Below are positions 6,560 to 56,618 of a stretch of DNA of 64,000 bases, one piece after another (the first letter of the stretch is position 1; every line of letters begins with the position of its first letter). The notes under the pieces are model-generated. The model did not search any database. It had not been told where the DNA came from and saw only the letters and a list, made by a program, of their open reading frames with translations. A program made the position numbers and the translations under genes. Source of the DNA: an uncultured virus (IMG/VR IMGVR_UViG_3300010340_000980) (taxonomy: Duplodnaviria; Heunggongvirae; Uroviricota; Caudoviricetes); the IMG/VR virus record IMGVR_UViG_3300010340_000980. One strand, given 5' to 3'.

Positions 6560-6588
6560 TAAAAAAGAAGGGATTAACCCTTCTTTTC
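6560..6588. terminator. bidirectional terminator
   Basis: aaaagaaggg-attaa-cccttctttt inverted repeat between convergent genes. Confidence 0.65.
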
Positions 6589-7389
6589 TACAAATTCATC
6601 ATATTTTTCAATAACTCGATTCGAGTCTCTTTTGTTCCAAGCCTTGTTTAGAAAAAGAAGTTTATTCTTATCAATTCCACAATTGCGGTTAGAAATATTA
6701 CCCTCATTGAAAAGAGCAATCATTTCATCCATACTCAAAGTCTTATGCTTACTATCAAATTTAGGATCAGGATGTGACCATCCAAATTTAAACAACCAAT
6801 TTAAAAGAGCCTTTTTATTGACATCTTTATAATCTTCTGTCGTTCCATTGCCACTTCTTTTTGAAAGTTTTTTATTTCCTTCGAAAAGGAGTCCGGCATG
6901 TATAACTTCAGGGAATTGCTTATCACCTTCAACTTTACAAATTTCATCCCAAATTCTTTTTTGTTTATCAAGGTTAGAAATATGATCCACACCACGAATG
7001 ATGTGAGTAATATCATAGTCATAATCATCTAAAATAGAACAGAAGTTATAAGTTGGAAATCCATTATTTCTAAGAATAACCATCTTATATTCTCCCATAT
7101 CAAGTTCGTAACCATTTTCAGTTTTGGTTCCGATCTTTTCAGCAACCTCCTTATATCGATCTAATCTATCAGATTGCTTGAAAGTCAAATCATAATCAAG
7201 ACCAAACTGGTCCATTTGATCAAAGATATAGTCAATATACTCTTGCTTATTTCTTTCTTGATCAGTATCATCGATGCGAAGTATAAATTGACCACCATTG
7301 GCTCTCGCCATCAAATAGTTAAGAAGAGATGTACGGAGATTTCCGATTTGAATATATCCCGTTGGGGATGGCGCAAAGCGACATTTCAT
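6574..7389 (-). CDS. glutamyl-tRNA synthetase catalytic domain only (GluRS/GluQ-RS-like, 271 aa)
   Basis: RFAPSPTG, HIGH-like QIGN, LRIDDTD, ITHIIRG.DH, KLSKR; no anticodon-binding domain. Confidence 0.85.
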   Translation of the reverse strand: MKCRFAPSPTGYIQIGNLRTSLLNYLMARANGGQFILRIDDTDQERNKQEYIDYIFDQMDQFGLDYDLTFKQSDRLDRYKEVAEKIGTKTENGYELDMGEYKMVILRNNGFPTYNFCSILDDYDYDITHIIRGVDHISNLDKQKRIWDEICKVEGDKQFPEVIHAGLLFEGNKKLSKRSGNGTTEDYKDVNKKALLNWLFKFGWSHPDPKFDSKHKTLSMDEMIALFNEGNISNRNCGIDKNKLLFLNKAWNKRDSNRVIEKYDEFVEKKG

Positions 7390-7558: not shown

Positions 7559-8092
7559 TTAAACATTGAAATACAATGCCCACCCAAGTGGATAGATATT
7601 CGTGTTTCTTTTTTGCCATTTTTTAGTATCTTTCATTAGATATAGATAAATAGAGTCTTTTCTTTTATCACCTGTAGCTCCTATACAATATTCATCATAG
7701 TCTATTTTTATATCTTTTAATATCCATAATAATCTTGAATAAACTTCAATTGCTTCCCCTTTATCACTTGGATCCTCATAGTTTACTTGATTTCTATCAA
7801 ATAGAGTAAATGATATATGATAGATTTTTGTATTTGGCTCTTTATGTAATTCTAATTTATAATCACTTTCCGATTTAGATTTGAAAAGTATTAAATAATT
7901 ATCACCGTTTTTTTCAACATCATAATCAGTTTTAATACCATCAAAAACCTCCTCATTTACTTTTTTAAATCCATTTAGTACAAAATCTTTAGATTTCGAA
8001 TATATTCTATATTTTTCTTTTCTATCTAAGTAAGGATTATTATTATCATTTATGTATGATGTATAATGATCATATTTTACTAAAATATTCAT
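7559..8092 (-). CDS. hypothetical protein (late-type promoter)
   Basis: 177-aa ORF with TAATATATA upstream. Confidence 0.65.
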   Translation of the reverse strand: MNILVKYDHYTSYINDNNNPYLDRKEKYRIYSKSKDFVLNGFKKVNEEVFDGIKTDYDVEKNGDNYLILFKSKSESDYKLELHKEPNTKIYHISFTLFDRNQVNYEDPSDKGEAIEVYSRLLWILKDIKIDYDEYCIGATGDKRKDSIYLYLMKDTKKWQKRNTNIYPLGWALYFNV

Positions 8093-8102
8093 AGTTTATA
8101 TA

Positions 8103-9707
8103 TTAACCATTCCAACCTTCTTTAAGACTGACTGTTTTATTGAAAGCCTTACCACACTTGTCTAAAATGTAATATCCTTTACGCATCATTTGAACAGCAT
8201 CTTTCACATTTAAAACGTGTGGTTCAAAAACAGCTTTGTTATTCACAACTAATGAATTAGGATTCAAATCAGATATAAAATCATCTCCAGGAGTCTCAAC
8301 ACTGAATAATCTATCATATTCATTAACAGGTATATTAATACCATGTTCAATAGATACCCAGTGAATTGTACCTTTAATCTTTCTATCTAAAACCATTCCT
8401 GACTTAGAAAGAGGATCATAAGTACACTTGATTTCAATGACATCACCATTTAAATCCTTAATAACTTCTTCCGCCTTAATAACATACGCACCTTTCAATC
8501 TAACTTCACCACCTAATTTCAATCTGTGAAACTTGTTATTAGCTTCTTCTCTGAAATCTTCCTTTTCAATCCACAACTCACCACTGAATGGAATCATTCT
8601 CTTACCAGCAGTTTCATCTTCTGGATTATTCTCTACTTCAACCCATTCAGTGCCGCCAGTCCAGTTAGTTATAGTAACCTTTACGGGTTCCATAACGCCC
8701 ATTAATCGATTAGATTTTTTGTTTAGATCATTTCTAAGACACTCTTCTAAAAGAAGATATGAAACAACCGAATCTCTTTTAGTTACAGAAATTCTATCAC
8801 AAAAATCTTTAATTGACTCTGGTGTAAATCCACGTCTTCTTAATCCAGAAATAGTTGGCATTCTTGGATCATCCCATCCGTCAACAAATCCTTCTTCAAC
8901 TAATCTCTTCAATTTCCTTTTAGACATTACCATATAGTCAATATTCAATCTAGCAAACTCAGTTTGTACAGGAAGATCAGATGGTAAAAAGTTTTTCAAT
9001 TTGGTCAATATCCAATTATAAAATTCTCGATGTGTTTCAAATTCTAGTGTACATAAAGAATTAGAAATTTTTTCTAAAGCATCGGAAATAGGGTGAGCAT
9101 AATCATACATTGGATAAATACACCATTTATCACTTGTTCTATAATGTGTATGTTTTTTTATTCTATATAAGACCGGGTCTCTCATTAACATATTTGATGA
9201 TTCTAAATCAATTTTTGCCCTTAATGTAGCACCGCCTTCCTTATAATCTCCATTTTTCATTCTCTCAAAAAGAAGCAAATTTTCCTCAATGCTTCTGTTC
9301 CTAAATGGACTTTCAGTGCCTATGGTAAATGGAGTTCCATTATATCTTGAAAGTTCTTCAGAACTCAACTCACAAACATAAGCATCCCCATTACTAATTA
9401 GTATCTTGGCAAATTCAAAAAGAATTTCATAATAATCAGATGTATAAAATACATTTGATGGTTTGAATCCAAGCCATTCTATATTTTCAATAATTGGATT
9501 TATAAAATCAACCTTTTCAGTTGTTGGATTTGTATCATCGAATCTTAAATTACACTCAACTCCATATTTTTCCGCTAATCCGAAATTTAAACAGATTGAT
9601 TTAGCATGGCCAATATGCAAATATCCATTATTTTCTGGGCTAAATCTAAATTTTAGATTCTTTTCTTTAAATTCATCTTCTATAATTTTTTCTATAAAAT
9701 TTTTCAT
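8103..9707 (-). CDS. glnS: glutaminyl-tRNA synthetase
   Basis: RFSPENNGYLHIGH, RFDDTNP, WCIYPMYD, MSKRKL, GWDDPRMPTISG, KGTIHWVS. Confidence 0.97.
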   Translation of the reverse strand: MKNFIEKIIEDEFKEKNLKFRFSPENNGYLHIGHAKSICLNFGLAEKYGVECNLRFDDTNPTTEKVDFINPIIENIEWLGFKPSNVFYTSDYYEILFEFAKILISNGDAYVCELSSEELSRYNGTPFTIGTESPFRNRSIEENLLLFERMKNGDYKEGGATLRAKIDLESSNMLMRDPVLYRIKKHTHYRTSDKWCIYPMYDYAHPISDALEKISNSLCTLEFETHREFYNWILTKLKNFLPSDLPVQTEFARLNIDYMVMSKRKLKRLVEEGFVDGWDDPRMPTISGLRRRGFTPESIKDFCDRISVTKRDSVVSYLLLEECLRNDLNKKSNRLMGVMEPVKVTITNWTGGTEWVEVENNPEDETAGKRMIPFSGELWIEKEDFREEANNKFHRLKLGGEVRLKGAYVIKAEEVIKDLNGDVIEIKCTYDPLSKSGMVLDRKIKGTIHWVSIEHGINIPVNEYDRLFSVETPGDDFISDLNPNSLVVNNKAVFEPHVLNVKDAVQMMRKGYYILDKCGKAFNKTVSLKEGWNG

Positions 9708-9726
9708 ATTTTAATTTTTTAATATT

Positions 9727-10548
9727 TCAAGAGTTTATCCACCTCCTTATTGTGCTTCTGGTAACACCATATTTTTTTCCAACTTCTGTATAGTTTGATA
9801 GTTCAACTTCTTTGATTAAATCTTTTTTATTTGGTCTCTTTATTTTTCTTCTTTCTAAATCTTGACAATTTCTACATCTTTTTGATTTGTAAGAAATCAC
9901 ATTTCCACAAGAACATTTTGGTTTTTTACTTTCTATATTTCTACCGGCAAATGTTTCAAGTGTTGAATTGCAATTTGGACAAATTATTTGAAGATTTTCT
10001 ATTCTATTATCATTATTTATCCCATTTATATGATCTATTATCAGTGACATTTTTTTACCATGCCAATTCTCATCCTGACCACATAATTCGCATTTCCTCT
10101 CTTTTATTTTCTCCTCAAAGAGTCTTCTTTTAAGTGTTGATCTATCGTAATTCGAATTTTCTGTAAGAACTTCTGATAGTTTAACTTTTTCTTTTTTACC
10201 AAATCTGCTTCTTTTATTGAAAGACTCGAAATGTGAAATATCAATATTATATTTTTTGATATATTTATTTAGAGTTCTGAAATTACAACCGTGTGGTGTT
10301 AAACTCATTTTTATTAGAACATCAGTTTGATTAATTGACTCAGATATAAGCTTCGATAGATTATCTTTTTGCCAATGGTCTTTAACATAATCAAATTTGA
10401 AATTAATTTCATATTTTTCTAAATAAAATTTTAACGAATTATAGGAGGAGGCACCAACCTTTAATCCTAGTTTTTCAATTACTTCCTTAAATGTAGAAGA
10501 ACCTTCAACACATTTTTCCAAATTTTCTCTTGTCCATCTCTTTTCCAT
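9727..10548 (-). CDS. HNH homing endonuclease
   Basis: CELCG...DHING..NDNR.ENL...CPNC; C-terminal HTH. Confidence 0.9.
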   Translation of the reverse strand: MEKRWTRENLEKCVEGSSTFKEVIEKLGLKVGASSYNSLKFYLEKYEINFKFDYVKDHWQKDNLSKLISESINQTDVLIKMSLTPHGCNFRTLNKYIKKYNIDISHFESFNKRSRFGKKEKVKLSEVLTENSNYDRSTLKRRLFEEKIKERKCELCGQDENWHGKKMSLIIDHINGINNDNRIENLQIICPNCNSTLETFAGRNIESKKPKCSCGNVISYKSKRCRNCQDLERRKIKRPNKKDLIKEVELSNYTEVGKKYGVTRSTIRRWINS

Positions 10549-10616
10549 TATGTAGTGTTTTTTAAGTATATATTAAAATGGTGACTTAAAAACCGTTATT
10601 TATTGTTCCCAAATTG

Positions 10617-10687
10617 TTCCTCCATCTCGTACTGACCGAGATCCCAGTGTTTCAAAGACACTGATGCTTCCTTCACACCCTGGAGGA
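10617..10687 (-). tRNA. tRNA-Gln(UUG), atypical T-loop
   Basis: Acceptor TCCTCCA/TGGAGGA; anticodon arm AGTGT-CTTTGAA-ACACT; T-loop GTCAGTA. Confidence 0.7.
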
Positions 10688-10694
10688 GTGTTTG

Positions 10695-10768
10695 CTATCC
10701 GGGTAGGGTTTGAACCTACAAAAACTAAGGTCAAAGCTTAGTGCGTCTGCCAATTTCGCCACCGGACA
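10695..10768 (-). tRNA. tRNA-Gln(UUG)
   Basis: Acceptor TGTCCGG/CCGGATA; anticodon arm CTAAG-CTTTGAC-CTTAG; GGTTCAAACCC T-arm. Confidence 0.9.
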
Positions 10769-10775
10769 ATATTAG

Positions 10776-10848
10776 ATGCTCTGACAGGGTATGATCCTGT
10801 AATATCTGAGTCAAAGTCAGATGTGATAGCCAATTTCACCACAGAGCA
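10776..10848 (-). tRNA. tRNA-Gln(UUG)
   Basis: Acceptor TGCTCTG/CAGAGCA; anticodon arm TCTGA-CTTTGAC-TCAGA; T-loop ATCATAC. Confidence 0.85.
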
Positions 10849-10850
10849 AT

Positions 10851-10883
10851 AAAAAACCCGAATCAATTAGATTGATTCGGGTT
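10851..10883 (-). terminator. attenuator terminator upstream of the tRNA-Gln cluster
   Basis: AACCCGAATCAAT-CTA-ATTGATTCGGGTT followed by a U-tract ending 2 nt before the first tRNA. Confidence 0.9.
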
Positions 10884-10912
10884 CAGTACTTTTAGACAAT
10901 ACTATACCATTA

Positions 10913-10966
10913 TCAATCTGTTCGATTAATTTGTTGTTGCTGTTGGTATTGAGTAAAAGTTGTCAT
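10913..10966 (-). CDS. Gln-rich attenuator leader peptide MTTFTQYQQQQQINRTD
   Basis: 17-aa uORF with 6 Gln codons (5 CAA, 1 CAG); its stop overlaps AGATTGAT, which is complementary to the terminator 5' arm. Confidence 0.85.
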   Translation of the reverse strand: MTTFTQYQQQQQINRTD

Positions 10967-10970
10967 ATTG

Positions 10971-11012
10971 TTTATATATTTTTTATTATGTCTTTGTTTT
11001 ACAAATATACGG
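10971..11012 (-). promoter_or_regulatory. tandem host-type (TAtaTTTG) and AATATATA promoter boxes of the Gln leader
   Basis: ccgTATATTTGtaa ... aAATATATAaacaatATG. Confidence 0.65.
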
Positions 11013-11019
11013 ATTTTTA

Positions 11020-11529
11020 TTAAAAAATGTCTTCAACAATTTTCTTAAAAGTATTCATCAATATATCTAAATTAATATTTTCTTTAAATAAAATAAATGA
11101 TTGATTTCCATTTTCAACATTTGTGTATAATTTATAACTATAGTCTTTTTCTATTTCTTTAGAAAATCTCCAATACAGTTTTTTTCTACCTTCTGATTCA
11201 TCTAAAGATCCAAAAATTAAAGCATCTGGATCCTTAGTCTCAATCAAGTACTTCATTCCTTTTCTAACGGTTGATAAAACTGACATCTTACCGGTATTAA
11301 AATTAGTAAGTCCTGGATTCATAACATTTGTATTTTGATCATATAAATAAAATTTATAAGTCCAAATATTATTATCTCTGTTAATACAGTCTATTTGATA
11401 AACTTTTTCATCTACTGAAAAAAGACCTATCAGTTTATTAGACCTCTCAATCCATCTAATTTCTACATCAGAATCATAAGATTCTTTTAATTTGTCAAAA
11501 AAGATTTCAAGACTTTTAATGATTTTCAT
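11020..11529 (-). CDS. hypothetical protein
   Basis: 169-aa ORF; ends with an R.KLY motif region loosely similar to 7559..8092. Confidence 0.65.
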   Translation of the reverse strand: MKIIKSLEIFFDKLKESYDSDVEIRWIERSNKLIGLFSVDEKVYQIDCINRDNNIWTYKFYLYDQNTNVMNPGLTNFNTGKMSVLSTVRKGMKYLIETKDPDALIFGSLDESEGRKKLYWRFSKEIEKDYSYKLYTNVENGNQSFILFKENINLDILMNTFKKIVEDIF

Positions 11530-11554
11530 TTCATATATATCATTTTTCTATTTG

Positions 11555-11642
11555 TGTAGATGTGAGGAGTCGAACCTCAATTTACCTTACGGGAATCGAA
11601 CCCATACGGATGCCTCCGTTAAGTCACCAGACTACATCTACA
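11555..11642 (-). ncRNA. tRNA-like RNA with two T-arms and no anticodon loop
   Basis: Acceptor GTAGATG/CATCTAC-A, short D-arm, ACGGA-GGCA-TCCGT hairpin, then GGGTTCGATTCCC and GAGGTTCGACTCCTC. Confidence 0.55.
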
Positions 11643-12246
11643 TTATAATTATTTGTTTAATTTTATTTTTTATATTTTTACCACCATTTGTTTCTAATGT
11701 TGCATTGCAATTTGGACAAACAATTCTTAAATTTTCTAACCTATTATCGTCATTTACACCATTTATATGATCAAGAATTAAAGACATTTTTTTACCTCTC
11801 CAATTTTCATCTTGACCACATAATTCACACTCTTTCTTTTTAATTTCATTGCTAAATAAAACTTGTTTTATTTTTCTTCTGTCTGTAATAGAATTTTCTA
11901 CAAAAATATCATTTAATTTAGTGTTTGAATTCTTTTTTCTTTCTATATAAAAATGTGAAGTTTCTAATTTTTTTATTTTTATCCATTTTTTAATGGTATT
12001 TCTGTTACCGCCTGTTGTCTTTAATTTTAAATTTCTACATATATCAACTAAGTTTTTTGACTCTAAAACCACCTTATCAAACTCTTCACTTTCATAAAAT
12101 GAAGATGAATTAAATTTTAATCCAAGTTTCTTTGCTTTATTACCAATAGATCTTGGTGTTCTATTTAATTCCTCTGATAAAATTGTTGGTCCTTTAATTT
12201 CATAAAAATCAATCAATATTCTAATTTCAACCTCTGTCCAGTTCAT
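11638..12246 (-). CDS. HNH homing endonuclease
   Basis: CELCGQDENW..KKMSLILDHING.NDDNRLENLRIVCPNC; paralog of 9727..10548. Confidence 0.9.
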   Translation of the reverse strand: MNWTEVEIRILIDFYEIKGPTILSEELNRTPRSIGNKAKKLGLKFNSSSFYESEEFDKVVLESKNLVDICRNLKLKTTGGNRNTIKKWIKIKKLETSHFYIERKKNSNTKLNDIFVENSITDRRKIKQVLFSNEIKKKECELCGQDENWRGKKMSLILDHINGVNDDNRLENLRIVCPNCNATLETNGGKNIKNKIKQIIIM

Positions 12247-12306
12247 AACTTTTTTCTTTTATATATTAAAAAATACTTACACCCTGGACAGAGTTTGAAA
12301 GGTCAG

Positions 12307-12380
12307 CGGACATGAAGGGATTCGAACCCTCGATCTTCTCAGTGACAGTGAGATATGTTAGGCCTCTACACCACACGTCC
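12307..12380 (-). tRNA. tRNA-Asp(GUC)
   Basis: GGACGTG/CATGTCC-G; anticodon arm TCTCA-CTGTCAC-TGAGA; GGTTCGAATCC. Confidence 0.92.
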
Positions 12381-12386
12381 GGTTAG

Positions 12387-12458
12387 TAGGGTATACCAGA
12401 TTCGTCCAAAACCAAGCGCACTAACTAACGTTAGTTAGATGGACTTTGCTAATACCCT
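12387..12458 (-). pseudogene. degenerate tRNA-Pro copy
   Basis: Ends nearly identical to the tRNA-Pro at 12742; palindrome CTAACTAACGTTAGTTAG in the D-loop; 3' anticodon strand and 5' T-stem deleted. Confidence 0.7.
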
Positions 12459-12463
12459 ATTTG

Positions 12464-12552
12464 CGGACACACCCGGACTCGAACCAGGATCTACCCCACG
12501 CACGGGGCCACTCTAACCATCGACGATTTTCGTCTAATTAAGCTATATGTCC
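12464..12552 (-). pseudogene. tRNA-Asp-like RNA with aberrant anticodon loop and D-loop hairpin insertion
   Basis: GGACATA/TGTGTCC-G acceptor; intact T-arm; GACGA-AAA-TCGTC insertion; CCCC-GTGCGT-GGGG 6-nt loop. Confidence 0.6.
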
Positions 12553-12557
12553 TTTTG

Positions 12558-12645
12558 CAGTCCCAACGGGAATCGAACCCGCTATTCAGCTTTCACCTAC
12601 TTCCTGATAGACAGTCAGGTGCACCAACCATTATGCGCTAGGACT
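12558..12645 (-). tRNA. tRNA-Asp(GUC) with long variable region
   Basis: AGTCCTA/TGGGACT-G; CCTGA-CTGTCTA-TCAGG; ~20-nt variable region. Confidence 0.8.
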
Positions 12646-12656
12646 AAATTTATTTG

Positions 12657-12736
12657 TCGCAGAGGTGAGAATCGAACTCACCACTCTAATGCTTCCAATG
12701 CACTGAGGCCTTTTTCATTACCTTGGTCACTCCGCG
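12657..12736 (-). tRNA. tRNA-Pro(UGG), atypical D-arm
   Basis: CGCGGAG/CTCTGCG-A (C1-G72, A73 Pro identity); loop ATTGGAA; GAGTTCGATTCTC. Confidence 0.7.
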
Positions 12737-12741
12737 ATATG

Positions 12742-12815
12742 TAGGGTATGCCAGATTCGAACTGACGATCTCTTGGTCCCAAACCAAGCGCGATACCGGA
12801 CTTCGCTAATACCCT
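12742..12815 (-). tRNA. tRNA-Pro(UGG)
   Basis: AGGGTAT/ATACCCT-A; CTTGG-TTTGGGA-CCAAG; CAGTTCGAATCTG. Confidence 0.9.
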
Positions 12816-12872
12816 TTTTTCTAATTCTATGCAAGGCCCAAGCCTTCTATGAATTAGTAACAGTCTCACTCG

Positions 12873-12944
12873 CAGTCCGTACGGAAATCGAATCCGCTTC
12901 TTCCGGTTGACAGCCGGATATTTATACCAACATACCCACGGACT
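12873..12944 (-). tRNA. tRNA-Asp(GUC)
   Basis: AGTCCGT/ACGGACT-G; TCCGG-CTGTCAA-CCGGA; GGATTCGATTTCC. Confidence 0.85.
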
Positions 12945-12960
12945 ATTTTTTAGATAAACT

Positions 12961-12997
12961 TACAAATATATTTCAAATTTTCTTAACTTCCAAATTT
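12961..12997 (-). promoter_or_regulatory. Bacteroidota-type promoter (-33 TTTG / -7 TAtaTTTG) directly upstream of the Asp/Pro tRNA cluster
   Basis: aaaTTTGgaag...aaaTATATTTGtaag on the minus strand. Confidence 0.6.
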
Positions 12998-13016
12998 ATT
13001 TTTACTTTTTAAAAAC

Positions 13017-13052
13017 AAAAAACCCAGTTAATCTTTTCAGACTAACTGGGTT
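13017..13052 (-). terminator. attenuator terminator upstream of the Asp/Pro tRNA cluster
   Basis: AACCCAGTTAGTCT-GAAA-AGATTAACTGGGTT followed by a U-tract. Confidence 0.9.
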
Positions 13053-13075
13053 CAGTTCTTTATAATGTCTCTACA

Positions 13076-13180
13076 TTACATAAACATGCAGTTAGCCTCT
13101 ATCGTATCAGGATCCTGATCCTGATCGACTACAACTTGTGGTTGCGGTTGGCTAACAAATATGTTTACAAATGTTTTCAT
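13076..13180 (-). CDS. attenuator leader peptide MKTFVNIFVSQPQPQVVVDQDQDPDTIEANCMFM
   Basis: 34-aa uORF rich in Pro/Asp/Gln/Val; contains AGGCTAACTG, complementary to the terminator 5' arm CAGTTAGTCT. Confidence 0.8.
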   Translation of the reverse strand: MKTFVNIFVSQPQPQVVVDQDQDPDTIEANCMFM

Positions 13181-13264
13181 TTCTTTATATATTAAAAAGT
13201 TTTTGTCTCTTTTGATTTTATATTACAAATATACGGAAAGTTTTTAAAACTTCCAAATTTATTT

Positions 13265-13606
13265 TTATTTTTTTGTAAAAATTGGTTCTGTTCTTGAACC
13301 AACTGATACCCACCTTACATTCAACTTTCCTTCTTTTACTAAAAGACTCAGACAAACTGATATCAATTTATAATGATAATAATAGTTAGGATGCAATGTG
13401 ATTACATGCTTAAATGAACTAAAGTAGTTCGTTGTTCTAACTATAGGATTAAGTGTGTTAAACTTATTCATAAAGTCTTCAATAGTAAACTCGTTTCCAA
13501 GTTTCGATTCAACAAATGGGTAAACATATCGACCAAAATAATCTGGTTGAACTTGTTCTTTTGCCCATCCTGTATAATTTGGGTTCCAAAGTGATTCGTA
13601 TTTCAT
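13265..13606 (-). CDS. hypothetical protein
   Basis: 113-aa ORF with TAtcTTTG promoter upstream. Confidence 0.65.
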   Translation of the reverse strand: MKYESLWNPNYTGWAKEQVQPDYFGRYVYPFVESKLGNEFTIEDFMNKFNTLNPIVRTTNYFSSFKHVITLHPNYYYHYKLISVCLSLLVKEGKLNVRWVSVGSRTEPIFTKK

Positions 13607-13727
13607 AACTTTAAAATTTATGAAAACTATCGTGTTTCTGTTACGCCACCACTGACTATTTTATTTTCATCAGTTATCAGTTCTGATTTCTTTTACAAAG
13701 ATAAGGAATTTTTTTGAACCACCAAAA

Positions 13728-14123
13728 TTAAATAGTATTTTTAATAATAACTCCACCTTTTGGATTATATTTTGGTAATCCAGTATGAATCTTCTTCAAA
13801 TATCTTTCATACTTTCTAAGAAGTTCTCTGATTTTTGGATCACTTGTATCATTGTAATCAAGTATACTTACTATAATTTGTTCTTTTTCATTATCTGGTG
13901 CTGATTCAATTTTTTCCTTCAGTAATGAAACCGTATCATCACTTACCCATAATTCGGATGGATTTATATATCCATCTAAAATAGATTGATAAAACTTGCT
14001 TTTTAGACCTTCTTTATTTCCAAATTTTGAATTTGCAATAATTTGAGTTTTATTAAATACTTTTTCACCAATTTTTTCTTTTAAAGAATTAATAATTTGA
14101 TCTTGTTTATTTTGTTTAGTCAT
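13728..14123 (-). CDS. hypothetical protein
   Basis: ORF; start moved to the ATG downstream of the tRNA. Confidence 0.6.
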   Translation of the reverse strand: MTKQNKQDQIINSLKEKIGEKVFNKTQIIANSKFGNKEGLKSKFYQSILDGYINPSELWVSDDTVSLLKEKIESAPDNEKEQIIVSILDYNDTSDPKIRELLRKYERYLKKIHTGLPKYNPKGGVIIKNTI

Positions 14124-14136
14124 AAATTTTAAATAG

Positions 14137-14210
14137 TGGGCCATGCTGGGTTCGAACCAGCGACCTTCTCGTTATGAGCGAGTTGCTCTGACCGACTGAG
14201 CTAAAGGCCC
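14137..14210 (-). tRNA. tRNA with CAU anticodon (probably Ile2, lysidine-modified)
   Basis: GGGCCTT/ATGGCCC-A acceptor; CTCG-CTCATAA-CGAG; body resembles ileX-type tRNAs. Confidence 0.85.
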
Positions 14211-14320
14211 TTGATTAATTTCTTTTACAAATATAATCAAAAAAGTTTACAAAAAAACATTTTTTGAAAATACTTTTCTAATATATAGTATAGAGGATAA
14301 AATAAAAAAATAACTAAACT

Positions 14321-14863
14321 ATGGAAAGGGAAGTATTAGAGAAATTTTTAGAAGATGGTTACTCATTAAACAAAATTTCAAAAGAAACTGGGAAATCATT
14401 AACTACAATAATATATTGGAAGGAGAAATATCAACTAAAATCAAATTATAAAAATTTTAAAAATCTTGAAAAAAGTGAATACGGTGAAACAAGATTTTGC
14501 CAAAGATGTCAAAAAGATGTTAAAACAGAAAATTTTTATCAAAGAAGAGGAAGAGAAAATAGCTCACCATATTGTAAACCATGTACAAATGAGCAAACAA
14601 TTGAAAGAACTAGAAAATTAAAGACTCAAATGATTAAGTATAAAGGAGGTTGTTGTGTTAGATGTGGGTATGATAAGTATCAAGGAGCTCTAGAGTTTCA
14701 TCACTTAGACCCAAAAGAGAAAGACTTCAATCCCTCACATTTAAAGAAATATTCTTTTGATGATAGAATAAAGAATGAACTTGATAAATGTATTCTTGTT
14801 TGTGCAAATTGTCACAGAGAGATACACTTCGAAATAAGTGAAAAACAAAAAGAGACACTCTAA
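14321..14863 (+). CDS. HNH homing endonuclease
   Basis: HTH, CxxC..CxxC, GGCCVRCGY....ALEFHH.DP..K....ELDKCILVCANCHRE.H. Confidence 0.9.
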   Translation: MEREVLEKFLEDGYSLNKISKETGKSLTTIIYWKEKYQLKSNYKNFKNLEKSEYGETRFCQRCQKDVKTENFYQRRGRENSSPYCKPCTNEQTIERTRKLKTQMIKYKGGCCVRCGYDKYQGALEFHHLDPKEKDFNPSHLKKYSFDDRIKNELDKCILVCANCHREIHFEISEKQKETL

Positions 14864-14877
14864 AGTGTCTCTTTTTT
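14848..14877. terminator. bidirectional terminator
   Basis: aaagagacact-ctaa-agtgtctcttt hairpin between the HNH gene and the tRNA. Confidence 0.7.
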
Positions 14878-14878
14878 G

Positions 14879-15157
14879 TGATCCCGACAGGATTCGAACC
14901 TGTGACCCACAGCTTAGACATACCACTATAGCTTTCGCTACCTATTGTTTGTGGTCTGGACTATATCATCACCTTCAACCTAGTTGTTCAGGTGCCTCCC
15001 CCTTAGTCTCTACACACTCCCTCATTTGAGGTTTGGCTCGGTATTACCATCAACATTACTTGGAAGGTTTCACCGAATTCGAGAAGTTCTATTCTAACTA
15101 TTTCTAATTAGATGCCCCCTTTGAGGCTGTTGCTCTATCCAGCTGAGCTACGAGACC
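14879..15157 (-). tRNA. tRNA-Arg(UCU) interrupted by a group I intron (exons 15157-15124 and 14918-14879)
   Basis: Spliced product GGTCTCGTAGCTCAGCTGGATAGAGCAACAGC-CT^TCTAA-GCTGTGGGTCACAGGTTCGAATCCTGTCGGGATCA. Confidence 0.9.
14919..15123 (-). mobile_element. group I self-splicing intron (IC3-like, ~205 nt) after U33
   Basis: P GAATTCGGTGAAACC, Q AATACCGAG, R GTGTAGAGACTA, S ATGATATAGTCC; P1 GCCU/GGGC with U-G wobble; terminal G. Confidence 0.9.
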
Positions 15158-15211
15158 GTTTTTTGATTGTTTCTATCTTATTACAAATGTAAGAATAAGT
15201 TTTTTAACTAC

Positions 15212-15406
15212 CTAATTTATTTTCATACTTTTTATTATCTCAATAGTTTTGGCATCACTAATTTTAGCAATTACGTCTTCCAATGCTTGGTTATATCCAT
15301 CTCTATTAGCCCATGTCAAATAGTCTGCAATTTGACCTTTTAATATGTGTGTATTAAAGTCTGCCTTATTTGAAAGGCGATCAATTAAATCTTTTAAGTT
15401 TTTCAT
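15212..15406 (-). CDS. hypothetical protein
   Basis: Short ORF with its own TAtaTTTG promoter. Confidence 0.6.
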   Translation of the reverse strand: MKNLKDLIDRLSNKADFNTHILKGQIADYLTWANRDGYNQALEDVIAKISDAKTIEIIKSMKIN

Positions 15407-15443
15407 TTTACAAATATAAGAATAAGTTTTTTAATTACCTAAT

Positions 15444-15734
15444 TTATTTTTCTTTTTCATAATCATCTGAAAAAACGCCGGTTCTAACCCACCACTTTTC
15501 AAGATTACCTTCTTTGGTTTTAACATCAACTTCAAAAATGTTCTCACCCTTATTCAACCAATTATATGGTGTTCCAAATACGGTCATATGTGTTTCAATA
15601 TCAATAATTTCATATTGATTACTAAGAGCCCATTGTTTGACATTATCTTTACCCATCTCTATTTTTGATACAAGAATAAAAATGACTAATCCAATAATAA
15701 ATATAACTCCAAAAATCTCAAATACACTTTTCAT
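15444..15734 (-). CDS. membrane-anchored hypothetical protein
   Basis: N-terminal TM helix; own TAtaTTTG promoter. Confidence 0.65.
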   Translation of the reverse strand: MKSVFEIFGVIFIIGLVIFILVSKIEMGKDNVKQWALSNQYEIIDIETHMTVFGTPYNWLNKGENIFEVDVKTKEGNLEKWWVRTGVFSDDYEKEK

Positions 15735-15755
15735 TTTACAAATATAAGGAAAAAA

Positions 15756-16157
15756 TTAGTCTATTAATTTTGATATATCTTTAACCATATTATGAGAGTT
15801 GGAATGATCGTAGACATTATTCCATAACTCAGGCATATGAATCATTTCATGAAGCTTTGATTTTGGTAAAACTTTAAATGAATTATAATAGGTGTCATAT
15901 TTACCATTATTATCTAATAGCCAGTTATCAATTTTTAATAAAATATGAGAAAACTTAACATCATAGTTGGGTTTTCCAAATGGAGGAGTATCTGATTCGA
16001 TATAAACATATTCTGGATCTATATTGAATTTTTCTTGAATTATACTACCTAAATAGTATGAAAAGGTTCCACATCCTCCAAAGTTAATATGAGGATATTT
16101 TTGATTTATTGTTGGGAGTATTTCTAGTACTTTAGAAATAATATCTATACTTTGCAT
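15756..16157 (-). CDS. hypothetical protein
   Basis: GGCG and H..L.I motifs, possibly a papain/transglutaminase-like fold. Confidence 0.6.
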   Translation of the reverse strand: MQSIDIISKVLEILPTINQKYPHINFGGCGTFSYYLGSIIQEKFNIDPEYVYIESDTPPFGKPNYDVKFSHILLKIDNWLLDNNGKYDTYYNSFKVLPKSKLHEMIHMPELWNNVYDHSNSHNMVKDISKLID

Positions 16158-16172
16158 GAAAAATGAGTGAAA

Positions 16173-16589
16173 TTAAGATGATACTTCAACACTATAAAAT
16201 TTTGGACTATTTTTAGATAGAAATTCTTTCAACATATTAAATACTTTTTCAAACTCTGGCTCTGAGTCTTTTGCGGACTCAACATCTTTTCCTAATTCAG
16301 TTAGTATAATTTCAATAAACTTATTATAGTCTTCTATATAATCTTCTTCTTTAGAATTTCTAATCTCGTCTACATAATTTGGATTATGATCATCATCTGT
16401 GATGATTGTTCCGAACACACAAGAGTATAAATCACCTTTTATTTGACCACCGTGGTAAGGAAAATCTATTTCCCAAAACTTTCCATTGATATTTTTTCCA
16501 AATTCTACATCATAATCATGTAGAAGGTTATTTAGTTCTGTATTTTCAGACACTTTATGTCCAAAACAATATAAGTTATATGTGTACAT
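16173..16589 (-). CDS. hypothetical protein
   Basis: 138-aa ORF in operon with coaD. Confidence 0.6.
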   Translation of the reverse strand: MYTYNLYCFGHKVSENTELNNLLHDYDVEFGKNINGKFWEIDFPYHGGQIKGDLYSCVFGTIITDDDHNPNYVDEIRNSKEEDYIEDYNKFIEIILTELGKDVESAKDSEPEFEKVFNMLKEFLSKNSPKFYSVEVSS

Positions 16590-16592
16590 ATT

Positions 16593-17063
16593 TTAAATTT
16601 TAACTAGATATTTTTCTCCACTACCTGGTCTAAAAGATTCTAATGCTCTAATTGCAGATGAACTGATATGTTCAAATTCTTCATCACAACGGATGAAAAC
16701 TACATTAACATCCTTTTTAAAATCTTTGATAAATTTCAATTGGTTATCTTCGTAGTCCAAATCATCACCATTTCGTAACCCACGAACTAAAATAACATTA
16801 TATCCTTCAGTCTCTTTCTTCTCAATCAATTCGTGTAAGAAGGTAGTATATACTTCTACTGGAACATCTAATCCTTTTGATAGTTTTAGTGCACGATCAA
16901 GAAGTTCAGATTGATCCATTGGTGTAGTAACCTTTGAGGGGTTTACACCAATGGCAATCATAATATTTCCATATCCGAATATTTTTTCCATTTTATTTAC
17001 TATATTCAAGTGACCAATATGGAATGGATTGAAACTACCACAATATACAGCTAGTGTCTTCAT
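16593..17063 (-). CDS. coaD: phosphopantetheine adenylyltransferase
   Basis: Y.GSFNPFH.GH, LVRGLR...D..YE, ISSSAIR. Confidence 0.85.
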   Translation of the reverse strand: MKTLAVYCGSFNPFHIGHLNIVNKMEKIFGYGNIMIAIGVNPSKVTTPMDQSELLDRALKLSKGLDVPVEVYTTFLHELIEKKETEGYNVILVRGLRNGDDLDYEDNQLKFIKDFKKDVNVVFIRCDEEFEHISSSAIRALESFRPGSGEKYLVKI

Positions 17064-25755: not shown

Positions 25756-26473
25756 CAAAAATTACTATAATATACTCGGTGTTACTCATGAGAGTACTGA
25801 GAAAGAAATAAAAAAATCTTATTATAAATTATCATTTGTTTATCATCCAGATAGAAACAAAGACATAGATACTACTATATTTAATTCTATAACAGAAGCA
25901 TATGATGTTCTTATGAGTTCTGAATTAAAATTAGAATATGATAAGAAAAGTAAATATGGTAAAGAATATAATGAACTTGAAGAATTATTTAAAGTAAATC
26001 TAGAATTCGATTATAATAGAGAAAATAATAAGTATGAGGAGTTTAAAAAAAATGCAGTACTTAATATAATTGAATATGTGGATGATAATTTTAATGGAAC
26101 AATTGAATATAATCGATGGGTTATATGTAAAAAATGTAATGGATCTGGTAAAGATACCAAATCTAAATTTGTTATTAAAGATGATAAAGGTAATATAAAA
26201 GGAGTTTTTGATTCAGATGATGGATGTGATTTTTGTGAAGGAACAGGAAAAGATCATTGGGGTAATAAATGTAGTTTCTGTTTCGGTCAAGGAAAAATAG
26301 GTTCTAAAGATTGTGATACTTGTAAAGGTGAAAAACGAATACTAGGAAAACAAAAACTAACAAAGATAAAATTAGATAAAGATAAAGATGAGACAATAGT
26401 TTCACACATGGGTCATTTTTCTAAATATGAGCCTGGTAAAGTTGGAAACCTTATACTAGTTAAAAAAATTTAA
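25745..26473 (+). CDS. DnaJ-family co-chaperone (J domain + zinc finger)
   Basis: YY.ILGV, HPD, four CxxCxGxG-type repeats. Confidence 0.92.
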   Translation: MNFNKNYYNILGVTHESTEKEIKKSYYKLSFVYHPDRNKDIDTTIFNSITEAYDVLMSSELKLEYDKKSKYGKEYNELEELFKVNLEFDYNRENNKYEEFKKNAVLNIIEYVDDNFNGTIEYNRWVICKKCNGSGKDTKSKFVIKDDKGNIKGVFDSDDGCDFCEGTGKDHWGNKCSFCFGQGKIGSKDCDTCKGEKRILGKQKLTKIKLDKDKDETIVSHMGHFSKYEPGKVGNLILVKKI

Positions 26474-29400
26474 TTTTTTTTCTTCGTTTCTGGTAATAAA
26501 TTAAAAATTCCTTTACTACTACCAGTCGTCTCTACACTACCAATACCACCAGAAAAACTGATAACAGGATTAATAGCTGTCTCAAATAAAGTCTCAGTAA
26601 TATTGATACTATCAATTAATGAAAATTCAGAATCGGAGTAATTTATTTGTGGAGCTACTGATGATAATGGTGCTTGAATTGATTGATTGATTCTATCCTC
26701 TCCGGCATAGTAGAAGAATGGAATAGCATCTACTTCATACATTTTAATGTAATCAAACTCAGTAGTATAAGGTTTTAATACAAAAACTACACCACCATCA
26801 GTTCCTAATGGAGTATTGTCATAATATGGTATACTAATACGAGCTAAGTAACCCCACACAGGATCAATTGTAATATCTTCTATTATAAAGAATCTATTAA
26901 TTTGTCCATTTAGATTAACATTTCTTTTAGAAACATATACTACGTCACCACCAGTTAAACCTGGATTTGATCCTGTAAAACCTAAATTATAACCACCACC
27001 ACTTGCTATAATATCATAAAAGTAAAGAGTTTGTGCCATAACCATTTGTAAAGATGGTTTATTATAGAAATATTCTTTCTTAATTATCTCAGATGTTTGA
27101 TTATGACCAACGATATCAGGAACTGCTGAAATATATGATACCAAATCATCACCTGTAAATAATTTAGCTTGAGGCTCATTTAATAAATATGGATATTTAA
27201 ATCCATTATTTTGAGATTGATGATTCATTTCAAATTCAATAATAGAATATCTAAATTTAGGTATATTTTTTGTGTTATCATTTTCAAGTAAAAATGGTCT
27301 ACTACTTTGAGTAACTGAAAATATTTTTAACTTATCAATATTATCAACAGATGTATTGGCAGTTAAAAATGGAGCCATTGTAACTCCACTAAAACTAGGA
27401 GTTAAAATACTTGTTCTCCACTTATTATTTTTTGTAAATCTATATAATCCTGGTATAGAGTATGTAACTCCCATTTCATATGATTCTGTTAACCCATCAA
27501 CATCCGACTCGAATAAACCGGTTACAAAACTTTGAGTTGAATTTATAGGATAATTAAAAAATGGATTTTCTATATAATCATCATATATTTGATATTTCCA
27601 CCCTAATGAATAATCTTTTATATCATCATTAAAAGTATTCTTAAAACTTGATATACTTGATAATATATCTTTAGTTGGATATCCATTATAATTAAGAATA
27701 GCTTTATTTGTTTCTAAATTAGCATCCCAAGAAATAGAATCTCTATAGATATTAGTCATTGATGATGTAAAATAATTTACATCAATCCAAGAATTATATT
27801 TTAAATAATTTTTAAATGTTGTAGAATCACTAAATCCGATATTTTCATCTTTGAATATAAAATTTTGAACTAATCCTGATGGATAGATAACAATCTGTCT
27901 ATCTTCATTTGAATTGTCAATATCATCCTGAATAGACATAGTTAATCCTTTAAATCTACCACCTTCAAACCTACCATCAATCCATTGAGAATCTATCATT
28001 TTTGTAATATATGGCCTTCCTTTAAATAATCCATTATTCCAAATTCCTTTAAATAATCCATTTAAAAATGCACCATTAAGCCAAATATTTTTTGAAAGAG
28101 AAATTAGATGGTTTTCAGAATCTTTTGAAATCCTTCTAATTGGGAAATTTAAAGTAACTTGTAATTTAATTATATCATCAGATACCTCAATAACTGTAAA
28201 ATAATCTCTTATAAGCTTTCTAGTATTATTAGAATCTAAACTAACAATATTACCAACAGCAACTTTATCACCAACTTTAAAATAATTTGGTATATTAAAA
28301 TCTTGTTGATTTAAAAATAAACCGTCATAATGAATATAACCTTTAGTTTTTCTTAAAGAAATAATCCAATTTTTAGTAGATGTTTTAATTTTTGTTAGAT
28401 TATTATCTATACTAGATGCTATATTTCCAATTTTTGTAGATTTTATATCAATAGATCCAGGAAAAGATAACGGTTTAGTGGTTCCTGGAAATATATCAAA
28501 ATCATCAAATAAATAAACATATTTATCATATCTCAATCCTTCATTCCAAACCCCATTTTCCCAAATACTTGAGAAAGCACTAGATGTTCCACTTGTGAAA
28601 ATACCATTACCAAATCGTGTAGATATTATATTACCATTGGATAAACCACCAATTAAGTCAATACTTGGTAGTAATAAATTATCATTATACGATGGGGTTG
28701 AATTTAACATTGAGTAAGTTGCGCAATTATATTCAGAATACTGAGATGTTTTTTTAACAACTTTAGCACTAGTTATTATTACTCTACCACCAGATGTGCC
28801 CGATATTTTTTTAATTTTCAATCTATCTAAATCTGAATAAGTTGCACCAATTGAAGTTGGTTCAAATGTTGAAGTCCAAGTTAACTCATCACTCTGACCA
28901 TACCAGGTCCCACTTGGTGGACATCCTATTTGATAAACTCTTAAATTCTGTGAAATTGATTCAACAAATCCACCATTATCATATCCAGGAAAATATCCTA
29001 CTTCTACTTGAAATCCTACTATTGCTATATTATTTAATGGTTCTGAAAAAGTTGGTCCATATTGTAGAACATATTTTATCTCAATATCATATTGACCAAA
29101 ATCTCTAAATATATTTCTATTTTGAGATGTATTTAAAGCGTATAAATAATTACCACCATTATATTCTATATAATAATTAGTATTATTCATAACTTGAGTT
29201 CCTTTATTCCAAACATATGGACCACCTGCAAATCCAACTGATGTAGTACAGTTTGTTAAATTTAAATATTTAGTATAAGATGTGGAATATTTCCATCTTT
29301 GTTGTGAACTTACAACAGACTGTGTAAAAGAAAGAGATGTTATATTTGGTTGGTCTTGTATAACTAACCAAGATGGATCAACACTAACAGTGAATGCATC

Positions 29401-52901: not shown

Positions 52902-53437
52902 TATTTTTTCTTAGGTTTTAGTATCATATTCCACTTAGATCCCTCTAATTTAGGCATTGCTTCTGGAACGCCAACTTCTTCAACTAAAGTTGCAAATCTT
53001 AACATAACAACTTGTCCTTGTTGTGCCATATTATGTTGACGACCTTTAAGTAAAAGTGTTAATTTAACTTTATTTCCATCCTCTAGGAATTCTAAAGCTT
53101 TTTTAGATTTGACTCCTAAATCATGGTCTGCAATAGTTACAGAAAGTGAGATTTCTTTAAGTTCTGTTTTCTTTTGATTTTTTCGGCTTTCTTTTTCACG
53201 TTTCTCTAGTTCATAGAGAAATTTACCATAGTCTTCAATTCTTACAACGGGAGGCGTTGCATTTTCTGAAATAAGAATCAAATCTTTTTCATTATCCTCT
53301 GCAAGTTTAGATGCTTCATAAGAAGACATAATTTGGCCCTGACCGATTTCACCAGTAACTCGTACTTGTGGAAATCTTACTTCACCATTTGTTTTGTGTT
53401 TTTTCTCCTTCACTGGAGGCTTTTTTCTATTATTCAT
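52901..53437 (-). CDS. infC: translation initiation factor IF-3
   Basis: N..VR...VRV, DL.LIS..A.PPV.RI.DYGKF.YE, KEI.LS..I..HDL..K....FL..G.KVK. Confidence 0.95.
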   Translation of the reverse strand: MNNRKKPPVKEKKHKTNGEVRFPQVRVTGEIGQGQIMSSYEASKLAEDNEKDLILISENATPPVVRIEDYGKFLYELEKREKESRKNQKKTELKEISLSVTIADHDLGVKSKKALEFLEDGNKVKLTLLLKGRQHNMAQQGQVVMLRFATLVEEVGVPEAMPKLEGSKWNMILKPKKK

Positions 53438-55299: not shown

Positions 55300-55716
55300 T
55301 TAAATTACTGACTTTTTAACCATTTCTGATACCAATTTTTTATCAACTGGTAAAGAATTAAACTCTTTCATTATCATTCCTAAGTTTTTAACACCTGATG
55401 CAACAAGAGAGTCAATTTTAGATTGAATTTCTTCAACTGAAAGTTGTGTTGGTAGATATGATTCTACAATTCTTAGCTCAGTTTGAGTTGCTGATATTTT
55501 TACAGTCTCAGAAAGTGATGTTAAGGTTTCTTTTAAAGATTTTAAAGTCTTATTAAGAATTTTAATAACATCTTCGTCTGAAAGATTTTCCGCACCTGTG
55601 TTCTTTTCGATAGTTTGAATCTCACCTTTAATTACAGAAAGTAAGTTCTTTGCTACAGTATTTTTAGCCTTGAATGCTTCAATGTAGTCTTTGTTAATTT
55701 TTTCTTTCAGTTTCAT
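55300..55716 (-). CDS. GatB/YqeY domain protein
   Basis: L.EKI..D...A.KAK....L..IK.EI, E..I.ESYLP.QLS.EEI, G.IMK. Confidence 0.88.
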   Translation of the reverse strand: MKLKEKINKDYIEAFKAKNTVAKNLLSVIKGEIQTIEKNTGAENLSDEDVIKILNKTLKSLKETLTSLSETVKISATQTELRIVESYLPTQLSVEEIQSKIDSLVASGVKNLGMIMKEFNSLPVDKKLVSEMVKKSVI

Positions 55717-56186: not shown

Positions 56187-56618
56187 TTAAAAATCTTTTC
56201 TTCGTAATTCTCTTTCAATATCTTTCTTTTTTATAGAATTTCTTTTATCATAGTCTTTTTTACCTTTACATACTCCAACTTTAAGCTTAAATCTTCCTCT
56301 AACTGTGAATATTTCCAGAGGTATCATTGCGATTCCTCTTGTCTCAGTCAATTTAGAAATCTTAGAAATTTCTTTTTTAGTAAGAAGAATCTTTCTATCT
56401 CTCATTTCTTCATGATTTTGAAAGGTTGCTTCTTTATATTTAGAAATACTCATATTCTTAACATAGAGCTCACCATCTTTAAAAAAGATGAATGAATCAC
56501 CAAAGTTAAAATTATTCTCTCTGATAGATTTAACCTCTGAACCAACAAGCATTAAACCTGCGGTGAAGTCTTCAATCACTTGATAATTATAATATGCTTT
56601 TTTATTGACAATTTTCAT
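56187..56618 (-). CDS. smpB: SsrA-binding protein
   Basis: NKKAY.NY, AGL.L.GSEVKSIR, R.RK.LL.K.EI, GKK.YDKR..IK. Confidence 0.95.
   Translation of the reverse strand: MKIVNKKAYYNYQVIEDFTAGLMLVGSEVKSIRENNFNFGDSFIFFKDGELYVKNMSISKYKEATFQNHEEMRDRKILLTKKEISKISKLTETRGIAMIPLEIFTVRGRFKLKVGVCKGKKDYDKRNSIKKKDIERELRRKDF

Follow-up and report, generated by a model that had tools for sequence, protein, structure and literature searches.

Leader-peptide attenuators of enterobacteria include trpL, hisL, leuL and pheL, together with the multivalent leaders thrL and ilvL, and the pheM leader, which carries cognate codons, attenuates the Escherichia coli pheST operon for phenylalanyl-tRNA synthetase. T-box riboswitches bind uncharged tRNA directly and need no translation. 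Here we describe a related arrangement in a stretch of 64,000 nucleotides of DNA from an uncultured member of the Caudoviricetes (IMG/VR record IMGVR_UViG_3300010340_000980), the whole of which we call the window: on its minus strand, a short leader open reading frame (ORF) and an intrinsic terminator precede a cluster of tRNA-Asp and tRNA-Pro genes. Our reading, held with a probability of about 0.72, is that this element is a ribosome-mediated (leader-peptide) transcription attenuator acting on the phage tRNA-Asp/tRNA-Pro cluster and, ancestrally, also on tRNA-Gln genes and the gene for glutaminyl-tRNA synthetase (GlnRS). As far as our literature search showed, this would be the first case of tRNA genes controlled by a leader-peptide attenuator; in those parts of the literature open to full-text searching, we found no account of such control for tRNA genes or for phage tRNA clusters.

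As in the trp, his, thr and ilv leaders, a short ORF enriched in codons for what is controlled is joined to an intrinsic terminator, and the antiterminator uses the 5' arm of the terminator while its other arm lies where the ribosome decides the outcome. As with thr and ilv, one leader would sense several amino acids. Unlike the enterobacterial leaders, the element is phage-encoded, its cargo consists of tRNA genes and aminoacyl-tRNA synthetases in place of biosynthetic enzymes, and its regulatory codons lie between segments 1 and 2 of the leader RNA and not within segment 1, the 1:2 pairing being unconserved. Like pheM, it is a cognate-codon leader in front of translation-apparatus genes, and the phage leaders linked to aspartyl- and asparaginyl-tRNA synthetases (AspRS, AsnRS) and to GlnRS are direct analogues of pheM; unlike pheM, the phage cargo is mostly tRNA genes, and one phage genome holds at least seven such modules. 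With T-box riboswitches it shares the principle that a shortage of charged tRNA activates the restoring genes through a choice between terminator and antiterminator, but the phage leader ORF evolves as coding sequence. Within 8000–17000 there was no match at E <= 1 to the T-box or any other cis-regulatory Rfam family, nor to the curated Rfam leader families (His, Leu, Thr, Trp and similar). An attenuator in front of the E. coli tRNA-Phe gene pheV was considered as a precedent and discarded, as the pheV sequence has no leader ORF upstream.

The leader ORF (13180–13076) comprises 34 codons and a TAA stop codon and encodes the peptide MKTFVNIFVSQPQPQVVVDQDQDPDTIEANCMFM; it and the other parts of the element, its tRNA genes and the Gln module described below all lie on the minus strand. 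After a gap of 22 nt the stop codon is followed by a hairpin of 15 pairs (13053–13020) and then by TTTTTTGTTTTT, the T tract reaching to about 13009. At −18.1 kcal/mol this is the strongest terminator-like site within 8000–17000, and it places an intrinsic terminator between the leader and the Asp/Pro tRNA cluster downstream. An earlier note on this DNA had pointed out an upstream ORF and terminator in this position, and both were recovered here. The proposed regulatory codons run from Q11 to D25 (QPQPQVVVDQDQDPD, 13106–13150). Together, Asp, Pro and Gln account for a fraction of 0.364 of the peptide, which is reached by just 2 of the 416 small ORFs (15–60 codons) of the window, the leader itself included, and the largest single enrichment is that of Gln (z = 4.4).

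Upstream of the leader lies the promoter region P1 (13210–13273), one copy of a 64-nt direct repeat, with the box TATATTTGTAA at 13233–13223. This box is of the TAnnTTTG type, which we take to be the Bacteroidota-type −7 element and which would indicate a Bacteroidota-type host. A second motif, TTAATATATA (13186–13195), stands 6 nt 5' of the leader ATG, as it does before ordinary genes of the window: it occurs 14 times (4959–63322) against 2.7 expected, and most copies precede an ORF start on their own strand by 5–35 nt, as a comparison with the ORF list showed. One possibility is that the motif, which is not the same as the TATATTTGTAA boxes, acts as a phage-specific promoter or as an element of translation start. 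The motif TATATTTG(TAA) is likewise over-represented, with 28 occurrences against 12.9 expected. The earlier note had counted TATATTTG(TAA) and TTAATATATA as design features shared by the Asp/Pro and Gln leaders; these numbers mark them instead as generic promoter and gene-start motifs of the phage.

Three competing pairings had also been proposed for the leader RNA, and all are exact in the window sequence. Segment 1, the anti-antiterminator arm (GTTAGCC, 13156–13150), pairs with GGCTAAC through 7 of 7 standard pairs. Segment 2, the antiterminator arm (AGGCTAACTG, 13098–13089), lies inside the ORF, within codons 28–31 of the 34, and pairs with segment 3 (CAGTTAGTCT, 13048–13039) through 10 of 10 pairs, including one G-U. 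The 3:4 pairing is the terminator itself, segment 4 being its 3' arm. The leader RNA folds with a z-score of −8.99, equalled by none of 200 shuffles, and the 2:3 duplex has an energy of −14.1 kcal/mol against −8.2 ± 1.8 in dinucleotide shuffles (reached by 4 of 500).

The effect of a ribosome on these pairings was approximated by folding the transcript as far as the terminator loop with 30 nt masked (a footprint of ±15 nt). Footprint and equilibrium folding are crude proxies for a kinetic process; on these terms the probability of the 2:3 pairing, P(2:3), in the window leader was 0.77–1.0 with the ribosome at codons 11–24, 0.16 at codon 25 and 0.00 at the stop codon. With no ribosome on the RNA it was only 0.15, because here the 1:2 pairing wins. 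A first measure, which scored segment 3 as paired with anything, was contaminated by a local 5-bp hairpin and uninformative, and the specific 2:3 probability was used in its place.

Relatives of the window were found among IMG/VR viral contigs of up to 476 kb. A terminator-region pattern gave the first of them, two viral contigs that each carry both the Asp/Pro and the Gln leader type; loci around phage GlnRS genes added six more distant family members, and a separate pattern for the terminator yielded 7 viral and 60 metagenome loci. The 77 pattern instances (duplicates and the window included) were reduced by four, two being cut upstream and two having a different leader, and the remainder collapsed to 48 distinct versions of the ORF DNA. 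An extra ACCC..GGG terminator that a pattern scan of the contigs of the first two relatives turned up in L007 was set aside as an ordinary end-of-gene terminator with no tRNA, and a 113-aa neighboring ORF used as bait found no relatives in the viral contigs. More distant phages with GlnRS about 50% identical (L012, L020, L025 and L034) have tRNA clusters with neither leader nor terminator in front, so the leader family is limited to one clade.

All 48 distinct versions keep the ATG and the stop codon, at ORF lengths of 27–34 codons. In a frame-blind MAFFT alignment, distinct gap runs have lengths divisible by three in 15 of 16 cases within the ORF, compared with 5 of 20 between stop codon and terminator, and column entropy at codon positions 1, 2 and 3 is 0.555, 0.712 and 0.951. 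The two best-conserved Pro columns use CCG/CCT/CCA/CCC in the numbers 26/10/3/0 and 20/11/11/3; two Asp columns are invariant (GAT in 47/48 and 48/48), and Gln makes up 96% of the two main Gln columns. Once the start codon, Lys2 and the Asn lying within segment 2 are set aside, conservation is confined to P, Q and D, and these invariant or near-invariant columns of the family support the choice of the proposed regulatory codons. The leader ORF evolves as coding sequence, and we infer that it is translated. That the run of Asp codons might merely follow from the palindrome ATCAGGATCCTGAT was rejected as a sole cause, as palindrome-free members (for example ..GATCAGGATCGT..) keep D-Q-D. A chance ORF next to hairpins in AT-rich intergenic DNA also has to be considered, small ORFs being as common in the window as the 416 above indicate, but 48 distinct versions with coding-type substitutions and gaps, a 2:3 pairing that is kept and a fold z of −8.99 leave this explanation with next to no probability.

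Across 49 family sequences, 91.5% of the 445 alignment cells of the 2:3 helix pair, against 2–46% in slid controls. The changes are one-sided and retain pairing, with G-U in 31 members and A-U in 18 at one pair and A-U in 45 and G-U in 4 at another. In masked-ribosome folding, P(2:3) reached 1.0 at some stall position in 49/49 members.

The cargo behind the Asp/Pro leader could be counted in the 42 of the 48 distinct members that had sufficient downstream DNA; the counts are ARAGORN calls, which miss non-canonical tRNAs. tRNA-Asp(gtc) was present in 40/42, tRNA-Pro(tgg) in 40/42 and tRNA-Gln(ttg) in 27/42, and no other tRNA type in more than three. The proposal that the leader's Pro and Asp codons match the Asp/Pro tRNAs behind it is thus supported by the cargo of the family, while the enrichment of Asp and Pro codons on its own is modest, as detailed below. 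The earlier note had further suggested that the Gln codons tie the leader to the Gln cluster, and this too is borne out: tRNA-Gln is the first tRNA behind the leader in 15/42 relatives, and in L008, L010 and L044 a single strand carries a promoter, the Asp/Pro leader, its terminator, the Asp and Pro tRNAs, the Gln leader, its terminator, the Gln tRNAs and GlnRS, with no promoter box between the Asp/Pro unit and the Gln leader with its tRNA-Gln genes. The window has the same order, interrupted by two HNH genes, a 169-codon ORF and extra promoters.

The distance from terminator to cargo is short in many of these relatives. The first ARAGORN-called tRNA begins within 25 nt of the terminator in 25/42, and in most of the remaining members the gap holds a conserved non-canonical tRNA-like element. 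Counted as TAnnTTTG boxes, promoters occur in the spacer between terminator and tRNA in 3/42 only (the lineage of the window, represented by L052; L069; and L087). With no visible promoter past that of the leader in nearly all relatives, their tRNAs must be reached by terminator read-through.

The same architecture recurs with other codons. In the window itself, a paralogous Gln module (10854–11009) lies 2 kb downstream of the Asp/Pro module and consists of a promoter box at 11009–10999, the leader MTTFTQYQQQQQINRTD at 10966–10913 and a terminator at 10884–10854. Two tRNA-Gln(UUG) genes called by ARAGORN follow (10694–10848), the first of them beginning 6 nt after the stem-and-tail span of the Gln terminator. 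The glutamine--tRNA ligase gene (8103–9707, minus strand; TIGR00440, 651.7 bits) stands directly after the tRNA-Gln genes in relatives and, in the window, beyond an HNH gene. Asp/Pro and Gln modules align in the same reading frame with 74% column identity, CCAACCGCAACCACAA falling against CCAACAGCAACAACAA, and the matching stretches QPQPQ and QQQQQ differ by C/A changes at second codon positions. The homology that had been noticed between the two leaders is therefore real and extends to the reading frame.

To extend this to other tRNA clusters, as the earlier note had suggested, we carried out a blind terminator scan on 112 sequences (the window and 111 loci), which gave 223 distinct terminators. 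An ORF of 10–45 codons lies just upstream in 74/76 of the terminators that have a tRNA within 160 nt downstream, compared with 57/147 of those that do not. At least nine leader types can be distinguished, and their codon content tracks the tRNAs or the aminoacyl-tRNA synthetase downstream. Q-rich leaders precede tRNA-Gln and GlnRS, in one case with a 149-codon ORF ahead of GlnRS. A terminator of the Asp/Pro type stands behind MIVIKLNDDSYLLADCFAD or MKRIFKLNDDCYLWTDCSQISDR, leaders with the core KLNDD..D..D, and is followed by aspartate--tRNA(Asn) ligase (NF003483, 477 bits). The leader MKSLSINNNNHNRKP (NNNNHN) precedes the asparagine--tRNA ligase gene asnS (TIGR00457, 392.6 bits).

The most complete picture comes from G003, a relative of 476 kb that CheckV rates as 97% complete and that has 59 Rfam tRNA matches. 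An automatic scan of all its tRNA-bearing regions found seven leader-terminator modules, and 51 of 56 ARAGORN tRNAs lie behind one of them (records L113–L118); the tRNAs lacking a module are Met, Cys, Leu with Arg, and Met, and some clusters contain internal TAnnTTTG boxes. Behind the Asp/Pro leader of G003 stand four Asp tRNAs and one Pro tRNA, and behind its Gln leader three Gln tRNAs. The leader ..THKHFSKSNKWF.. (HKHF.K..KWF) precedes Phe, His, Phe, Trp and four Lys tRNAs, ..SKSSSSRSS.. precedes Arg and three Ser, ..YYYEGE.. precedes Glu, Glu, Tyr, Glu, Glu and Tyr, and ..IIGGGAGA.. precedes Gly, Gly and Ala. The cargo of ..NLNMNMNLTVVLNTLCIR.., which is rich in N, L, M, T, V and I, comprises Asn, Ile, Leu, Val, Thr, Met and others.

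Every pairing of a leader with a cargo set received a binomial z, the long ORFs of the window serving as background. The true assignment was the best of 5040 permutations for all seven automatically found G003 modules, and again the best of 5040 for seven hand-picked leader types. Five of the seven G003 leaders have their own cargo as top column. Scored on Asp and Pro only, the Asp/Pro leader gives the weakest signal of the set, and the signal is strong once Gln is added. The suggestion of a reusable module whose leader codons are tuned to the tRNA cargo is thereby carried well beyond the two leaders on which it had been based.

The cargo match bears on a reading in which the peptide PQPQ...DQDP itself slows the ribosome, so that the leader would report on, for example, EF-P activity and not tRNA supply. 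Pro and Asp are poor peptidyl-transfer substrates that form peptide bonds slowly, and at the Pro positions it is the amino acid and not the codon that is conserved, which fits a peptide-level signal as well as a codon-level one. Arrest by the nascent peptide would, however, require a separate arrest motif for each leader type, when peptides as different as poly-Q, SSSSRSS, GGGAGA and NNNNHN occupy the same architecture, each matched to its cargo; we regard it as very unlikely.

Structurally, the strongest argument for a switch is provided by the paralogues. Nine leader types were covered by 15 representatives, and in 14 of these the best duplex between the leader and the 5' arm of its terminator is reached by 23 or fewer of 500 shuffles; its place is always within the final third of the ORF or at the stop codon. 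The sequences of the segments are unrelated among the nine types.

From these observations the following mechanism may be envisaged. On the transcript from P1, a ribosome would translate the 34-codon leader while RNA polymerase proceeds. With plentiful Pro-, Gln- and Asp-tRNAs it would cover segment 2 (codons 28–31) and reach the stop codon; segment 3 would then pair with segment 4, the terminator would form, and no tRNA would be transcribed from P1. Were the P, Q and D codons (11–25) decoded slowly, the ribosome would stall 5' of segment 2, the 2:3 pairing would arise before segment 4 is synthesized, and polymerase would pass the blocked terminator into the tRNA genes. As the cargo supplies the very decoders whose shortage is sensed, the circuit would amount to a feedback 'tRNA on demand' device, and the phage probably makes its Asp and Pro (and Gln) tRNAs on demand. 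Coding-type evolution of the leader, conservation of the terminator and of the 2:3 pairing, the position of segment 2 inside the ORF, the match of codons to cargo and the mostly promoter-free spacers are what the sequences show; from them we infer leader translation, ribosome stalling and regulated read-through.

Several results weigh against this mechanism, the first group of which concerns the folding. The 1:2 helix, perfect over 7 bp in the window, is not conserved in the family: 69% of its cells pair, and the central G-C is found in 6/48. It holds for the window and fails as a family feature, the perfect helix being a feature of the lineage of the window. Without a conserved 1:2 pairing, the antiterminator is the default in most members, and the ribosome-free P(2:3) indeed has a median of 0.97 across the family. 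At a footprint of ±15 nt, a ribosome at the stop codon blocks the 2:3 pairing in just 22/49 members, so that termination would depend on timing. One member, L011, has a different terminator and no significant duplex (461/500 shuffles reach it); its leader pairs only with the terminator loop and the top of the stem. In addition, the terminator sequence served as the bait by which the metagenome set was collected, which biases the set to close relatives and makes it incapable of showing 3:4 covariation.

These folding results suit a codon-blind sensor of translation, in which any ribosome crossing segment 2 leads to termination and failed translation, through host shut-off or ribosome shortage, leads to read-through, P, Q and D being conserved for some other reason. 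With an antiterminator that forms by default in most members and a 1:2 helix that is unconserved, 'translation off means tRNAs on' is the simplest reading of the RNA alone. It leaves unexplained, however, why nine paralogous leader types carry codons for their own cargo (1 of 5040 on two occasions) and why conservation singles out precisely P, Q and D while leaving third positions free. We consider a codon-blind sensor unlikely.

A second group of adverse results concerns the promoters and codons of the window. As the earlier note had cautioned, a second promoter lies between the terminator and the tRNAs: P2 (12947–13010, box TATATTTGTAA at 12970–12960) is a lineage-specific duplicate of P1, the two forming the 64-nt direct repeat at 77% identity and a spacing of 263 nt. 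The interval from terminator to tRNA is thus not promoter-free in the window, whose tRNAs need no read-through, and since P2 also drives them the attenuator can here do no more than raise their output above a basal level. Asp and Pro alone are weakly enriched, at 7/33 residues in the window leader (P = 0.034) and 5/31 in its G003 copy (P = 0.17). The tRNA-Gln genes of the window lie 2 kb downstream, beyond two inserted ORFs, with their own promoter and their own attenuator. A run of Val/Ile codons (VV[VI]), conserved in about half of the members, has no cognate tRNA in the cargo, which agrees with a caveat in the earlier note; in the predicted fold, GUUGU of the Val run can pair with GCAAC of the Pro/Gln codons. 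Finally, 2/7 G003 leaders score best with a cargo set other than their own.

The position of P2, together with a P1-leader-terminator unit that equals the 263-nt repeat spacing exactly and so resembles a cassette, could mean that P1 and the terminator simply serve the unit as an independent micro-gene or small RNA, with no regulatory link to tRNAs that are transcribed from P2 only. In the 39/42 relatives that have no TAnnTTTG box at this place, 25/42 having their first tRNA 25 nt or less from the terminator, the tRNAs would then be promoterless, and the conserved 2:3 pairing would be purposeless. The probability that we allow an independent unit is accordingly slight, a little below that of peptide arrest. 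It is the cargo match that disfavors the micro-gene, the codon-blind sensor and the arrest peptide alike.

If the attenuator reading is right, it may extend to a regulon across the clade, in which each phage tRNA block and each phage aminoacyl-tRNA synthetase stands behind its own codon-matched attenuator. Decoding would be measured per codon family, and only those tRNAs or synthetases in short supply would be switched on, as when host tRNAs have been cleaved or depleted; the modules would be paralogues that evolve by duplication and by retuning of their codons and of the 2:3 pair. We lean slightly towards this wider proposal. The usual view of phage tRNA genes is that of constitutive add-ons, and the element suggests that they can be under feedback control by the decoding capacity that each tRNA restores. 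The leaders would then state which codons a phage monitors, which bears on why and when phages need tRNAs and synthetases. At about 170 nt, the modules are portable and programmable, with nine natural codon specificities on one architecture, and could act as sensors of aminoacyl-tRNA supply.

In the Asp/Pro cluster of the window, three tRNA-Asp(GUC) genes were called by ARAGORN and matched by Rfam, at 12872–12944 (42.8 bits), 12557–12645 (43.3 bits) and 12306–12380 (62.2 bits), in agreement with the earlier note. Its two tRNA-Pro(UGG) genes were reduced to one (12741–12815; ARAGORN, Rfam 65.5 bits). The other candidate (12657–12737), recognized by eye and called by neither program, spans about 80 nt and is tRNA-like but non-canonical: it resembles a tRNA in its acceptor stem and T arm and has UGG in the place of the anticodon (CGGGAAGTGACTAAGG...). 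A similar element is conserved in relatives directly after the terminator (for example L049, L057, L067 and L083), and it could represent either a tRNA-Pro of non-canonical form or a signal for processing. Two copies had been described as degenerate: the Asp-like one (12464–12552), with a 23-nt D-loop insert, still scores as a tRNA (RF00005, 34.5 bits), and the Pro-like one (12386–12466) is disrupted, is not called as a tRNA, and contains repeats (D5–D7) that are 89–95% identical to pieces of the tRNA-Pro. The tRNA-Asp at 12557–12645 has a long, class II-like variable arm, which is unusual for tRNA-Asp and is found in the same form in L002 at 1896–1984.

Two ORFs on the minus strand, 12246–11638 and 10548–9727, are paralogous and share an HNH-type C-terminal motif, with a Pfam HNH match for 9730–10548 only. 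Both sit between the tRNA clusters and GlnRS and are absent from relatives such as L008; this comparison suggests that an operon that was ancestrally one unit was broken up by mobile endonuclease genes. A borderline tRNA match of 87 nt, possibly class II (11555–11641, minus strand; RF00005, 29.1 bits, no ARAGORN call), overlaps the 3' end of the HNH-like ORF. The Gln leaders of L057 (+3266) and L108 (−4666) have a terminator (CCCGTTAGTCTGAG.AGATTAACGGG) that resembles the Asp/Pro type and not the usual Gln type, which hints at recombination between modules.

The window as a whole is AT-rich (G+C about 27%) and looks like part of a huge phage. Among deposited phages its DNA matches were weak and only to unannotated uncultured phages of 630–740 kb; the best match in the annotated phage collection, with 24% query coverage and 71.7% identity, was to an unannotated uncultured phage of 635 kb. 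It encodes GlnRS, IF3, SmpB, a YqeY-like protein, a sigma factor, ligases, HNH endonucleases and an ORF of 2992 residues (26473–35448, minus strand) that has no Pfam match at E <= 1e-5. The translation-related genes are those for IF3 (52904–53437), the YqeY-like protein (55303–55716), SmpB (56190–56618) and a 271-residue catalytic fragment resembling GluRS/GluQRS (6577–7389). Despite SmpB, no tmRNA was found in the window. A further tRNA gene (14872–15156, minus strand), which ARAGORN did not call, has a group I intron inserted close to its anticodon loop (14936–15133; RF00028, 62.1 bits, E = 1.4e-15) and adjoins an ORF of 180 codons on the opposite strand (14321–14863) that is similar to the HNH ORFs of the window. 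The initiator-like tRNA-Met genes of G003 stand directly behind promoters and are leaderless, and the same holds for the tRNA-Met of the window (14136–14210).

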